64,000 bases of DNA from Staphylococcus phage vB_StaM_PB50, in the sequence record OR770614.1. The stretch is one strand, 5' to 3'. Every line of letters starts with the position of its first letter. The stretch's first letter is position 1. A program made the translations under genes and the position numbers. The notes under the pieces were generated by a model. That model saw only the letters and a program-made list of their open reading frames with translations, made no database searches and had not been told where the DNA came from. Shown piece after piece: positions 13,217 to 32,460 of the stretch.

Positions 13217-13280
13217 AATAATACTCCTTTATTAAAAATAAAAGTAATGATGAAATTAATCATCATTACTTTTATTATAT

Positions 13281-15943
13281 TTATTTTGAATCTTCTTTAA
13301 TTTCTTTAACTAGATTATTTATTTCTCTAGGTGATAAATCTTTAATATCATCTACATTTTCGAATTTTTCCATTAAGAACTCTAATTGATCTGGAGAAAG
13401 ATCCATAATTGAATGAAGATCTTCTTCTCCTGCTTTATTATAATCAATACTAACATTTAGTGGACTAAAGTAAGCATTAAGTACTTTAGTGTTATTATTT
13501 TGATATCTCTTTTCAAATGAAGTATTTAATTTAAACGGATTACCTGTATATAACTCTACTAATAGACGTTTTCTTAAGTCTTCATTATTAGAGTACATAT
13601 TAGTTAATTCATTAATAGCTTTGATAGATCCACCGATCATCATGTTAGTTGTTTCCATCTCACCGCAGTTATTCTAAATATTATTATTTAGCTAGACTAT
13701 ATCATTACCATTTAAGGTAGAATATATTTAGTCGTTGAACACTAATTAAAGTGATGCCGATTAGTTTAATACTCTTCTCAGCAATTAATATTCTTTACAT
13801 TTATACATTTCTATATAACGGAGCCTTTATTTGACTCTGAGAGGATTGTTGTTTATTCTTGATCTATAGAACTTAGAATCGGGTGTTCGTGTGGGAATAC
13901 CACTGTAATTATTAAAGTCAATTGATTTTGCACTTAATTTCCCACTAGGCTCGTGTTTTAACTTCAGGTGATACAAATCTCCAACCATAAATGTTCTATT
14001 ACTAACATCTAGTCGGTTTTTCTTAATATTGTATTTATTGAATAAGTATCTGATTTGTTCAGATTCAATATTATCAAAGAAAGGTGCTTGATGAAGTACA
14101 ATACCATTTTTAATAAAGTCTTCAATAGCTTCTTTAGTCTCTTCATTATCTAAACTATCAAATAATTTTACATAATTATCATAAGATACTTTATCTGCAT
14201 CTTTGATATATTCTAATAAATATTCTTTCTGCTTATTAACATCATCTAACTTACTAATACGATGTCTAATAACGCTTGAAATATGATTTAATTCTAATTC
14301 AACTAATGCTGAAGGATTTCCTCTATTAATAATACCCATATTATTATGAATTAAGTCTACTCTTTTCTTAATAGGGGTTTTATTATCTTTTGTGAAATCT
14401 TCTCCATCAAATTCAGTAATCATTGGCATTTCATTATCTGGAACAATCTTAGCTACTACACCTTTTCCACCGTACCTTGTGCTTATTTTTGCATTTGTGT
14501 TAATGAACTTCATATACTTTACTAAGAAGATCAGACTATATCATTACCTTCATATAAGGTAGAATATATTTAGTCGTTGAACACTATTTATAGTGATGCT
14601 GATTAATTTTATAATTCTCAGCAATTAATATTCTTTACATATAAATTTTCATTCATAAGGGACCTATTAATTTGATCCGTGCACTAAAGGTTTCTTCTCT
14701 AATACTTTAACTCTAAATACGATTTTATCAAATTGATTTCCATCATATACAAGTTTAGCATTAGGATCAATGTAGCTCTTAAATCTATTATAAGTTCTAA
14801 TTAAATCATTACTAAATTTCTTCTTGCGTACAATATCATCAGTAACAGTTACAAATGTACGATAGAAGTGTTCTAAATCTTTGATATATTTTAAGAATTG
14901 CTCTGAGTACTTTTCATTCTCTAATTTTTCAATTGATTCATTATTAAGTACATCAATATCAATAATTTTACCATGTACCTTGTATGCATTATCACTTTCA
15001 ACAATTTTAGATAACATATCATTTTTAAATTTATGAATTAATTCGTCATAGTTTAGTCGTCTTGTTGCTGTTAATACACCATCTTTAATTTCTTCTCCAA
15101 CATCTGGAAATGCTTTATAACTTTCTTCATCACCATAAATATTTAAAGGAATATCATTTGTATTTATAGTTACATTAACTACATGAACGAAATAACTTGA
15201 CATTTTCTCAGCTAATGATTCTGATACAACAATACCATCTTCCTATAGGTTATAATTAATAAAATTATACCATAGACTATATCATTACCGTTTAAGGTAG
15301 AATATATTTAGTCGTTGAACACTGTTTTTAGTGATGCTGATTAATTTAATAACATCTCAGCAATTAATATTCTTTACATACATAAATTTCTTTATGCAGG
15401 AACAAAGTTAATTTTATTCGTAAATCCTTTATCTGGTAAAAATACTGAAGTAGCGTTTGTACCATATTGGAAATTATTTGATTCTTCATCATAGTTTTGA
15501 TCTTTATAAAGTACTTCATTTTTATCAACAGTACTACCAATTTCTAAAGAATCAATTTTTTCATTTTGATATTTATTACCGAACTTCTCAGCTAAATGAT
15601 TAGCTTCTTCTCTAATAATAATATCATACTCATCATTATCTTTATACTTCACTAAATAGTATTTTACATATTTATTCTTTTCAAATATAAAAATAACTTC
15701 AAAATCTCTTTCAGCTTTCTTATAACCAGTTGAATATTTACCCACTTGATTCTCAAAACCAGTTTGAATTAATGGAGGTTCAGCTTCAGTTAATTGAATA
15801 CATTGACCTATATGTGAAGTGAACATTTGTGATCTATTACCATTAGTTCTATTAACATTAGGCATTAATAGTAGTTCCGATAAAAATTCATGACTTTTCT
15901 TATCTTCAATCTCTTGCATTCTTTGTGTTCTTTCCTTTGTCAT
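13281..15943 (-). CDS. multisubunit RNA polymerase beta-subunit homologue (C-terminal half, betaC-like), four exons
   Basis: Exon 1 carries SHIGQCIQLTEAEPP (cf. RpoB HYGRVCPIETPEGP); exon 3 carries KISTRYGGKGVVAKI...MPM...DG...D.I.N..G...R (cf. GDKMAGRHGNKGVISKI...NPLGVPSRMN); exon 4 begins GEMETT (cf. GGQRFGEMEVW). Proposed exons: 15416..15943, 14675..15239, 13834..14491, 13281..13665. Only exon 1 has a Shine-Dalgarno sequence. Spliced product is about 711 aa. Confidence 0.75.
13666..13833 (-). mobile_element. mini group I intron 3 in RNAP beta-like gene (about 168 nt)
   Basis: Same cores; 5' splice after ..AGAGU (IGS GCUC); 3' splice after ..AACUG. Junction ..NNNPLRV|GEMETTNMM recreates the universal beta GEME motif. 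Confidence 0.65.
14492..14674 (-). mobile_element. mini group I intron 2 in RNAP beta-like gene (about 183 nt)
   Basis: Same P/Q/R/S cores. 5' splice after GGAU with IGS GUCC; 3' splice after ..AAAUG. Junction ...KKPLVHG-S-KISTRYGGKG aligns to RpoB IQPGDKMAGRHGNKG. The ORF-track ATG at 14513 and its first 7 codons are intronic. Confidence 0.65.
15240..15415 (-). mobile_element. mini group I intron 1 in RNAP beta-like gene (176 nt, ORF-less)
   Basis: Conserved cores P AAUUGCUGAGA, Q AAUCAGCAUC, R GUUCAACGACUAAAUA, S (U)GAUAUAGUCU. Exon ...GFTN ends in U; IGS GUUC pairs with exon GAAU (U.G); omega G then EDGIVVSE. Joined peptide KGFTNEDGIVVSE matches RpoB NGYNFEDSILVSE. Confidence 0.75.
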
Positions 15944-16100
15944 CCTATAAACACTCTCCCTGTAATATAAAAGATAATGTGAAATAATATTCTCTTAATA
16001 TTCCACATTTTTATAATATATATTTAATAATAATTTTGTGCAATGGAATGGATCCAATGACACTTATTTTATGTCATTGGATATTCCATTTTAAATATAA

Positions 16101-30689: not shown

Positions 30690-32086
30690 CGGTTATCCTA
30701 TATATTTCTATATAAGCCAGACTATATCTTAATCCCAGAGGGATCATTCCTGTTTCGATTTAAAGGGTTCTCACCTACTTTTATTTATAAAAGCCCTACT
30801 CCTATTGCGAAATTTCATCGCTTAAAGGATAGTCGTTGAACCAATTTATTAGTATTTTGTCTATTTTTTGCATTTCATAAAAGTTTATACGAAGTAAAGG
30901 TATTTCTCTTTCTTTACAAAAATTATTTTTTAATTCATCTCTTTTATTTATATCTTTATCTCTAAACATACTTTTTCTATGATTATTATTGTGTTGTCTT
31001 CCATCGAACTCTATTAAAGTATTATTTCCTGATACATAGAAATCAAATCTCAAGCTTTTTTTGTATTTTAAATCAGGAAATGTTTTTTCTTTAATATAAT
31101 CTATATTATTTTTTTCTAGAAATTTGATTATGTTTTTTTCTCCTCTAGAATATGTGTTCCCTAAACGTCTGTCTTTACGACACATAGGACAACCAGGCAT
31201 TTCATATATCCATCTAGGTTGTTTATAAAAAGTATGATTACATTTCACACATTTGAATTTATTTTTAGATGTATTTGTTTTATATTCATCCAGACATATT
31301 ATATCTCCATTAAACAAATTAGACAGCCTTTCTTCAAATTCTTCATGTGTTATAATTTTAAATTTAGGGGGATTACATACAGGACAACTATCACTTTTTC
31401 TTTTTCTTAGTTGTGATATGCTATTTTCAAATTCATGTCCGCATCTTTTATCTCTCATCACTATTTTAGAATTTATATTTTTGTAATCTCCACTCACATA
31501 CTCTTTATGATAAATATTTAATTTCTCGTTTATAGTATTAAAATTAGATTTTTTTAAACTTCTCTTTTTAATACCGCAATGTGGACATACTTTCCCTACT
31601 TTTATTTTTTCAAATGTTCTTTGGAATTCTTTATTACATTTTAAACATACAAAATCCATTTTAGTTTTTGTATTTACATATTCTTTAGATAATAAGATAC
31701 ATTTATTTTTTACTTCTTCTTTTACATCTTCAATACTAAAAAATTTTCTAGACATTATTAATCTCTCCCAATTTTATATTATAAAAAATAGTTAACTGGG
31801 TTAGATAAAATTGCTAATAAAATTGGTGCTGATTTCCCATTATTTCAATACTTAGGACTCTTAAAAAGAGCTTTTATTTCACCATATATCATCTCACTAC
31901 TTGTTTCTACTTTCGTTCCATTTAGGCAAGTGAGCTTTAGGGAGTTCCAGCTTTAAAGGAATTTATTCGACACTATATTGCTATAGTAGAAGGGGCCAAG
32001 TTCTCTAAACCCGTTTTCATTGATCTTGATGAAGCGTCTAAACTGTAAGCATTCTTTTTCGAAAGGAGCTGTTGTACAATAATTTC
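30690..32086 (-). mobile_element. group I intron carrying an endonuclease ORF (about 1.4 kb; 5' boundary approximate)
   Basis: R GGUUCAACGACUAUCC at 30828..30843 and S AAGAUAUAGUCUGG at about 30705..30722; GC-rich paired region 31800..32080; Q-like AAUCAGCACC just upstream of the ORF; P9-like hairpin then omega G before the last exon. Confidence 0.6.
30802..31755 (-). CDS. intron-encoded homing endonuclease, PD-(D/E)xK (Vsr/DUF559-like) with three N-terminal CxxC..CxxC zinc ribbons
   Basis: 317 aa; repeated C..C....C..C zinc fingers; C-terminal SLRFDFYVSGNNTLIEFDGRQH resembles the RFDF...IE.DG..H nuclease motif; the last 6 codons (WFNDYP) are encoded by the intron R element. Confidence 0.6.
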   Translation of the reverse strand: MSRKFFSIEDVKEEVKNKCILLSKEYVNTKTKMDFVCLKCNKEFQRTFEKIKVGKVCPHCGIKKRSLKKSNFNTINEKLNIYHKEYVSGDYKNINSKIVMRDKRCGHEFENSISQLRKRKSDSCPVCNPPKFKIITHEEFEERLSNLFNGDIICLDEYKTNTSKNKFKCVKCNHTFYKQPRWIYEMPGCPMCRKDRRLGNTYSRGEKNIIKFLEKNNIDYIKEKTFPDLKYKKSLRFDFYVSGNNTLIEFDGRQHNNNHRKSMFRDKDINKRDELKNNFCKEREIPLLRINFYEMQKIDKILINWFNDYPLSDEISQ

Positions 32087-32270
32087 ATACACTATTTTTA
32101 TTTAGTGTTTAGACTATATATTCATCCTATTAGGAGTTTTAATTTTAGTCGTTGAACTTTATTAAGATTATTTACTTAATATTAGATGCTGATCAGTTTC
32201 ATAAACTTTCCCAGCAATTTAAAAAATTTTACATATACATTGCTGTATAAGGAGGCTACAACAGTATTTA
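32087..32270 (-). mobile_element. mini group I intron (ORF-less), boundaries approximate
   Basis: Cores P AAAUUGCUGGGAAAG, Q GAUCAGCAUC, R GUUCAACGACUAAAA, S AUAUAGUCU; 5' start UAAAUACUGUUGUAGCCUCC with IGS GCCUC pairing exon GAGGU; P9 hairpin ACACUA...UAGUGU. Confidence 0.55.
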
Positions 32271-32284
32271 ACCTCTTAACATGT

Positions 32285-32460
32285 AAGTCATTTATCTTTA
32301 CTATATTCATTTTATAGATGAGACTATATCTTCTTCGTCATATATTTAGTCGTTGAACAATTTAATTGATGCTGATCAACTTTAAATGTCTTTTCAGCAG
32401 TTAATATGATTTTAATTGAGCTCATACATAAGTTAACCCAACCGGTACTTTATATCTTGT
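32285..32460 (-). mobile_element. mini group I intron (ORF-less), boundaries approximate
   Basis: Cores P AACUGCUGAAAAG, Q GAUCAGCAUC, R GUUCAACGACUAAAUA, S AAGAUAUAGUCUC; P9 hairpin CUAUA..UAUAG; 5' end probably within the last ~15 codons of ORF 32422..34107. Confidence 0.5.

Follow-up and report, generated by a model that had tools for sequence, protein, structure and literature searches.

Interrupted genes have already been described in jumbo phages. In Bacillus phage AR9/PBS1, experimentally validated self-splicing introns are reported to interrupt the genes for RNA polymerase (RNAP), gyrase and polymerase (Lavysh et al. 2016, Virology 495:185). In AR9-like Staphylococcus phages, which have two multisubunit RNAPs, the RNAP, gyrase B and polymerase genes are disrupted by introns that were predicted from protein alignments and whose class was not named, and the RNAP subunits of jumbo phages are already divided into N- and C-terminal genes (Korn et al., bioRxiv 10.1101/2020.12.14.422802). 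The Jug jumbo phages of Bacteroides/Phocaeicola have a mean of 18.5 group I introns per genome, about 206 nucleotides (nt) long and situated in essential genes, and 37 of 76 are supported by metatranscriptome junction reads (PMC12880540). Here we analyse a stretch of 64,000 nt from Staphylococcus phage vB_StaM_PB50 (sequence record OR770614.1), called the window in the following, and in it the positions 15943..13281 of the minus strand. It is very likely that this region is one gene, encoding the C-terminal beta subunit of the non-virion RNAP (nvRNAP beta-C), and that it is interrupted by three compact group I introns without open reading frames (ORFs), which belong to one family spread through the phage lineage.

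The window matches the Staphylococcus jumbo phages AH12 (96% identity) and Machias (92%), as well as MarsHill, Madawaska, DC4, PALS_2, S6 and LY01 (about 80-83%), and these are the AR9-like phages mentioned above. In GenBank, the nvRNAP beta-C gene is joined from 4 pieces in MarsHill, 3 in Madawaska and 6 in Machias, and in AH12 it is annotated as separate coding sequences (CDSs). MarsHill, Madawaska and Machias resemble the window in having introns of the same family in the same gene, as judged from R1, a family covariance model that we built from six copies in the window (64-118 bits; loci L001, L003 and L007). MarsHill also shares two of the three window insertion sites, HGS-K and PLR(V/I)-GEME (a hyphen marks the junction). 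The introns of these three phages differ from those described here in being inferred from protein alignment alone, without class or RNA structure. AR9 is, like the window phage, a related jumbo phage with two multisubunit RNAPs, but its nvRNAP beta-C gene is uninterrupted, and the two AR9 gyrA introns, the only AR9 introns scanned, were not matched by R1 (best 16.5 bits, E 0.13). The Jug phages differ in host phylum and in phage lineage, the window introns are shorter than theirs (147-194 nt), and the Staphylococcus intron copies form a sequence subgroup of their own.

In PALS_2 and DC4 the same gene is a single uninterrupted ORF of 2142 nt, and nine cultured phages have it undivided (DC4, PALS_2, S6, SA1, LPJP1, AR9, PBS1, Goe21 and phiR1-37). 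Compared with the intact ORF by blastn, the window region gives four collinear blocks of 78-84% nt identity, with three segments between them that the intact genes lack. The boundaries were set by blastn and DNA alignment to the intact PALS_2 and DC4 genes, and the parts of the gene are as follows, with lengths of proteins in amino acids (aa).

15943..15392, 15203..14667, 14513..13827 and 13658..13281, minus strand: the four ORFs, from the ORF list
15416..15943, minus strand: exon 1, aa 1-176, ending ...GFTN with its last base U at 15416; 84% nt identity to PALS_2 nt 1-525
15243..15415, minus strand: intron 1, 173 nt, no ORF, core 15381..15273, terminal G at 15243; exact gap against PALS_2 and DC4
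14675..15242, minus strand: exon 2, from EDGIVVSE to ...LVHG and the first base of a Ser codon; 81% nt identity to PALS_2 nt 526-1097
14492..14674, minus strand: intron 2, 183 nt, no ORF, core 14642..14532, terminal G at 14492; gap against PALS_2
13834..14491, minus strand: exon 3, from (S)KISTRYGGKG to NNPLR and the first two bases of a Val codon; 80.5% nt identity to PALS_2 nt 1096-1752
13666..13833, minus strand: intron 3, 168 nt, no ORF, core 13802..13693, terminal G at 13666; gap against PALS_2
13281..13665, minus strand: exon 4, from (V)GEMETTNMM to EDSK, including the stop codon; 78% nt identity to PALS_2 nt 1756-2132; end of the ORF

The exons keep open frames without frameshifts relative to the intact homologues, and the breaks fall within codons and within conserved motifs. 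At the three junctions the intact PALS_2 and DC4 proteins read ...GMTNEDGIVVSE..., ...LVHGSKITTRYGGKG... and ...NNPLRIGEME..., and the corresponding stretches of the joined product read GFTNEDGIVVSE, HGSKISTR and PLRVGEME. An initial annotation, made from the sequence without database searches, had already proposed that the three junctions restore conserved beta motifs without a gap, and this is what the comparison shows, the junctions being identical to those of PALS_2 and DC4. Its intron coordinates were exact for introns 2 and 3, but the 3' end of intron 1 had been put at 15240, which is wrong by 3 nt. That position would drop the Glu of GFTN-EDGIVVSE and end the intron in A, and the end was therefore moved to 15243, where the intron finishes as ...CCTATAG-GAAGAT. 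The product, which had been given as 711 aa, has 712 aa.

The 712-aa product matches chain 7S00_C of the solved AR9 non-virion RNAP with an E-value of 5.2e-137 over residues 15-660, free of gaps at all junctions. It also matches bacterial beta subunits (E 1e-14 to 1e-9) and the Pfam family RNA_pol_Rpb2_6 (PF00562; 37.8 bits, cut-off 23.4). Homology and conserved beta motifs thus place it as the C-terminal half of a multisubunit RNAP beta subunit of the AR9 non-virion type, and the proposal that the four minus-strand ORFs are pieces of one such protein stands.

Each insertion holds one core of 109-111 nt, as had been claimed for a conserved block of about 110 nt with the P, Q, R and S elements. 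Identity among the three is 89-91% for the cores and 79-81% for the full introns. The P, Q, R and S strings that are classical for group I introns occur in all three cores, as AAUUGCUGA, AAUCAGCA, GUUCAACGACUAAAU and GAUAUAGUC, respectively, and the R and S strings match those of Tetrahymena. P pairs with Q as UGCUGA/UCAGCA, Q being UCGGCA in intron 3. The R-element string GTTCAACGACTAAATA is found six times in the window (five exact, one with two mismatches) as compared to 1.2 expected, a number that none of 100 shuffles reached. From comparative evidence and minimum free energy (MFE) folds, the layout is P1-P2-P3-P4-P5-P6-P7-P3'-P8-P7'-P9-G without peripheral extensions. P5, P6 and P8 have 3-5 base pairs (bp) each and the introns have about 25% G+C. 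In the MFE folds P1 is followed by a P2 with a GAAA loop in all three introns, and P9 is a different hairpin in each of them.

The splice sites have the properties of group I introns. In all three introns, with boundaries obtained independently from the homologue alignment, the 5' splice site follows a U and a terminal (omega) G ends the intron, at 15243, 14492 and 13666, and in the MFE folds the splice-site U faces a G of the internal guide sequence in P1. P1 is GAAUAAA/UUUGUUC in intron 1, GGAUC/GGUCC in intron 2 and GAGUC/GGCUC in intron 3, so that the guide sequence varies together with the exon (GAAU/GUUC, GGAU/GUCC and GAGU/GCUC), and the P1 guide pairs with its own exon in the other four window introns too. 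The guanosine-binding P7 with its bulge, J6/7 and J8/7 are present as A[C]GACUA/UAGUCU, GUUCA and (A/U)GAUA, which are invariant or nearly so among 48 distinct members. The stretch that begins with R, CAACGACUA, and finishes with S is 43-46 nt long and is taken up by P3', a single P8 hairpin of 3-5 bp and J8/7. This spacing is so short that there is no room for P7.1 and P7.2, and the introns do not fit subgroup IA2.

The Staphylococcus phage Twort orf142 has three group I introns, and the T4 introns in td, nrdB and nrdD are of subgroup IA2; the IA2 introns of Twort and T4 have about 250 nt or more and extra P7.1/P7.2 helices. The window introns are unlike these, with a gap between R and S of 25-37 nt that fits one short P8 hairpin. 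The Azoarcus pre-tRNA-Ile intron is of subgroup IC3 and has 205 nt, a minimal P1-P9 structure and a GAAA tetraloop on L2; it lies within a tRNA gene of a bacterium, is rich in G+C and highly stable. The window introns share the minimal P1-P9 structure, the lack of large peripheral domains and the GAAA on L2, whereas they are 20-60 nt shorter and have about 25% G+C.

To the structural comparison we could add covariation. R1 recovers exactly the six window copies with 70-125 bits, among them introns 1, 2 and 3 with 120.1, 111.6 and 124.9 bits, and in related loci that amount to 0.9 Mb it gives 268 matches. The loci comprise the Staphylococcus relatives and IMG/VR contigs of 200-400 kb that were fetched by the exact P4'-R-S pattern. 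The covariation sample was the 48 distinct sequences among the best 150 R1 matches. With the structure including the P3/P7 pseudoknot, 93.1% of the cells are paired, as compared to 31-46% when the partners are slid 1-3 columns. Compensatory two-sided changes occur in every pair of P3 (6/6), P6 (4/4) and P8 (5/5), P4 is 100% paired and P7 is invariant. There is thus comparative evidence for the P3-P7 pseudoknot together with the P4-P6 and P3-P8 domains. RNAalifold, run on four copies, recovered P2, P4, P7 and P8 and placed a nested helix where P3 should be, which is wrong; the pseudoknotted P3 was set by hand and tested separately.

The likely course of events would be that one pre-mRNA covers the whole nvRNAP beta-C gene and that each intron in it adopts the fold of a minimal group I core, from P1 to P9. 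The first attack, by an external guanosine, would take place after the U of the P1 U.G pair, and the freed 5' exon would in turn attack after the terminal G, joining the exons exactly. The ligated mRNA would then hold a frame of 712 aa across three conserved beta motifs, from which the subunit would be translated.

Several points weigh against this reading. The guanosine-dependent splicing of the three introns is something that we infer from sequence comparison, because the frame and the motifs of the intact homologues are exactly restored. With about 25% G+C and a very short P5, P6 and P8, autonomous folding is not assured, and a possible P10 (GAAG/CUUU), read by eye, is convincing for intron 1 only. 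The covariation alignment was fitted to the model, and its counts are biased towards the structure. For this reason we added a partner-swap test, which offsets the bias in part: for each of 97 distinct cores we took the longest helix that the 12 nt preceding P4 can form with the 11 nt that follow GACUA, and the P3 helix had a mean of 5.93 bp as compared to 4.26 +/- 0.09 bp with swapped partners, 0 of 500 swaps reaching the observed value. The window alone has four forms of P3 (GAAUAU/AUAUUC, UAUUAU/AUAAUA, UCAUAU/AUAUGA and UUUUAA/UUAAAA). Finally, the Rfam group I model RF00028, which the initial annotation had suggested as a check of the fold, gave zero group I matches in the whole window at the gathering threshold and zero in a 2.9-kb slice in E-value mode, and none of the three introns reaches its gathering score of 50 bits, which is a curated score cut-off and not a biological feature.

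The negative Rfam result can be explained by speed filters and the score threshold rather than by absence of the core. RF00028 matches appeared only in slices of about 210-390 nt, and in slices of about 210 nt all three introns align end-to-end with model positions 1-253: intron 1 with 20.1 bits (E 0.003), intron 2 with 42.3 bits (E 6.6e-10) and intron 3 with 44.9 bits (E 1.1e-10). Since the introns score below the threshold, the family goes unnoticed in routine Rfam scans. No introns were reported from Rfam in the DC4 genome paper, but this is uninformative about sensitivity, because the nvRNAP beta-C gene and the gene for the virion RNAP (vRNAP) beta subunit are truly uninterrupted in DC4. 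The end-to-end alignments, the covariation in P3, P6 and P8, the P1 that covaries with the exon and the terminal G in all three introns together uphold the group I assignment of the initial annotation.

It could be imagined that the four ORFs are translated separately and that their products assemble into a polymerase without RNA splicing, the blocks between them being intergenic repeats. Jumbo phages do divide their RNAP subunits between N- and C-terminal genes, the AH12 record lists separate CDSs for this region, and each of the four ORFs has some in-frame start codon. However, the starts at 15203 and 14513 would lose conserved residues (EDGIVVSESLAEK and the Lys of GSKISTRYG), and, as had been claimed, the later starts lack a Shine-Dalgarno sequence: there is no ribosome-binding site upstream of the ATG at 14513, only GAGAAA before 15203, and at 13658 GGTGAG directly abuts the ATG. 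Separate translation also accords badly with breaks inside codons and conserved motifs, at sites that vary among phages 80-96% identical, and with an intergenic repeat that has a covarying group I core with guides matched to the exons, and we consider it very improbable. Nor do the blocks behave as a repeat of another kind, such as a regulatory RNA or an insertion resembling a miniature inverted-repeat transposable element, in a gene that has become a pseudogene. The many copies per genome, with 28-33 blastn places in AH12, Machias and LY01, would agree with such a repeat, but the group I model aligns with its elements over their whole length, the exons are open without frameshifts relative to the intact homologues, the gene encodes an essential polymerase subunit, and viable cultured relatives share the insertions, so that this explanation has hardly any probability left. 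Inteins and translational bypassing were considered as well and rejected, the former because the insertions contain in-frame stop codons and the latter because they hold a full ribozyme core.

Another thought is that these are genuine group I introns which have become too reduced to splice alone and need a protein of the phage or of the host, such as a maturase or an RNA chaperone, or another intron copy. Their very small size, their G+C content of about 25%, the P5, P6 and P8 of 3-5 bp, the lack of peripheral domains except for the L2 GAAA loop, the sub-threshold RF00028 scores and a family member of 147 nt in the same window that lacks P2 and P8 would all fit such a dependence. The P3/P7 pseudoknot, J6/7, J8/7, the bulged P7, the U.G pair and the terminal G are, on the other hand, intact and conserved. 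Ribozymes of about 200 nt, both engineered and natural ones such as that of Azoarcus, also self-splice, which counts against a need for protein, and we find the dependence unlikely. One gene with three group I introns is thus the reading that we prefer.

The surroundings of the gene contain two features that may concern its transcription.

16013..16020, minus strand: TATATTAT, a motif upstream of exon 1 that follows the early promoter consensus of AR9/MarsHill type (bioRxiv 10.1101/2020.12.14.422802)
13237..13276, strand not assigned: terminator-like hairpin directly downstream of the stop codon, from a terminator scan

The motif is the sole copy on either strand between 12575 and 18770. In the window as a whole the motif shows no enrichment, with 47 copies against an expectation of 51, and a single copy upstream of the gene is therefore weak evidence for a promoter. 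On the coding strand, the scan found no terminator-like sites inside the gene.

The window has seven group I cores in total, all on the minus strand, and those outside the nvRNAP beta-C gene are found in the genes for gyrase B and for the N-terminal subunit of vRNAP beta.

44981..45157, minus strand: gyrase B intron, 177 nt, same family, in the Toprim motif ITSDAD-DDGLHIQ; R1 99.3 bits, placed by sequence and frame
32289..32435, minus strand: first vRNAP beta intron, 147 nt, same family; R1 87.6 bits, boundaries from the intact DC4 protein
32271..32288, minus strand: micro-exon ACTTACATGTTAAGAGGT, 18 nt, encoding (Y)LHVKR(L), between two introns; matches DC4 VGYLHVKRLQQ
32077..32270, minus strand: second vRNAP beta intron, 194 nt, same family; R1 70.5 bits, RF00028 42.0 bits
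30690..32008, minus strand: third vRNAP beta intron, 1319 nt, group I, with R and S elements; the junction SMKTG-QLSGSD matches DC4

The gyrase B exons correspond to the ORFs 46672..45137 and 44953..44213. The 147-nt intron lacks P2, and it has only 17 nt between GACUA and AUAUAGUC, which leaves no space for P8; RF00028 matches it with 26.6 bits and with the P2 and P8 regions deleted. It is identical at 146 of 147 positions in the cultured phage Machias. The initial annotation had called the introns in the nvRNAP beta-C gene among the smallest group I introns, which is true, but with the 147-nt member present they are not the smallest in the window. This member may be the smallest natural group I intron, and a literature search for the smallest one known gave nothing useful. 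Lack of space for P8 was found in 9 of the 97 distinct cores (in L008, in L015 at 2407-2513 and in others), and among these P3 takes at least five different sequences that are still complementary, which suggests that P8 has been lost repeatedly and that its loss is tolerated.

The 18-nt micro-exon is also identical in Machias, where the vRNAP beta CDS is annotated as three pieces only and three R elements are present, and it was probably overlooked in that annotation. The third R element of Machias, about 250 nt further downstream, possibly belongs to a short intron there, and the 1319-nt intron is absent at that site in both AH12 and Machias. The 1319-nt intron has an ORF of 317 aa (31755..30802) which is endonuclease-like, with treble-clef zinc-finger and DUF2726 matches, and the 3' end of which (...NWFNDYP...) overlaps the R element GGTTCAACGACTA. 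Its homologue in MarsHill is annotated as a homing endonuclease.

To see which sites are occupied in the relatives we placed the intact PALS_2 protein onto them. The nvRNAP beta-C gene has about six insertion sites, and their occupancy differs between phages that are 80-96% identical.

N175-E176: occupied in the window and in AH12, in these two only, and not annotated in AH12
S365-K366: occupied in the window, AH12 and MarsHill
G372-G373: occupied in MarsHill, Machias, Madawaska and LY01
about 542-549: occupied in AH12, Machias and LY01
about 565-570: occupied in LY01
585-586: occupied in the window, MarsHill, Madawaska, AH12 and Machias

From HLK(542) to GEME(586), AH12 (L002 3641-5860) and Machias (L003 3445-5260) have an ORF the size of an endonuclease and three tandem mini-introns, as compared to a single intron in the window, and the intron load thus differs sharply among phages that are 92-96% identical. 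Searching with intron 2, blastn found 28 places in AH12, 29 in Machias, 33 in LY01, 9 in MarsHill and 11 in Madawaska, and zero places in PALS_2, S6 and DC4. As these introns are without an endonuclease, their copies would have to spread by endonucleases acting in trans, by recombination of co-infecting relatives or by reverse splicing, which is speculative.

The family is also found outside the Staphylococcus phages. In IMG/VR contigs of 200-400 kb there are 103 stretches whose P4, R and S strings are those of the window introns, and these contigs (loci L008-L110) are, judging by their size, probably Jug-type Bacteroides phages. Their cores are often arranged in tandem, 150-300 nt apart, with five in a row in L015 (3198-4209). 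The fetched loci have 64 core-to-core intervals of 150-300 nt, and such distances point to tandem introns with very short exons, micro-exons, between them. The exact family pattern had zero matches in 185,579 bacterial and archaeal genomes. A looser R to S pattern, GTTCAACGACTA-N18-48-GATATAGTC, was seen in 32 contigs (L113-L144), nearly all derived from metagenomes; their taxa are very diverse, with Heimdallarchaeota and Rickettsiales bins among them, and the contigs are probably of phage or prophage origin.

The window introns are a new example of an already known kind, and not new in kind, because relatives have already been annotated and published as intron-split in the same gene and other jumbo phages are reported to have swarms of small group I introns. 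What is added here is an explicit group I assignment with structural support, the finding that the family escapes Rfam, and the very small size of the introns. A more far-reaching interpretation, which we offer tentatively and regard as possible rather than probable, is that they represent a phage-borne family of minimal group I ribozymes of 147-194 nt that is missed by routine Rfam scans and includes variants without P2 and P8 as well as tandem introns with micro-exons down to 18 nt, and that these would be self-splicing.

The findings have consequences for how these phages are annotated. As Rfam defaults leave the introns unflagged, essential genes are systematically mis-annotated: the nvRNAP beta-C gene and at least two others, for virion RNAP beta and gyrase B, appear as fragments or 'hypothetical proteins' in AH12-like records, which a family-specific covariance model such as R1 fixes. 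A Gram-positive jumbo-phage lineage is added to those in which short group I introns without ORFs have multiplied to tens per genome, and the site-by-site presence and absence among phages 80-96% identical makes it a good system for the spread of introns that lack an endonuclease. At 147-183 nt and about 25% G+C, the introns come close to the smallest size at which a group I core can be complete. If it is true that they self-splice, they would rank as the smallest group I introns in nature that do so, P8 would be dispensable, and work on the structure and engineering of ribozymes would gain a useful minimal scaffold.

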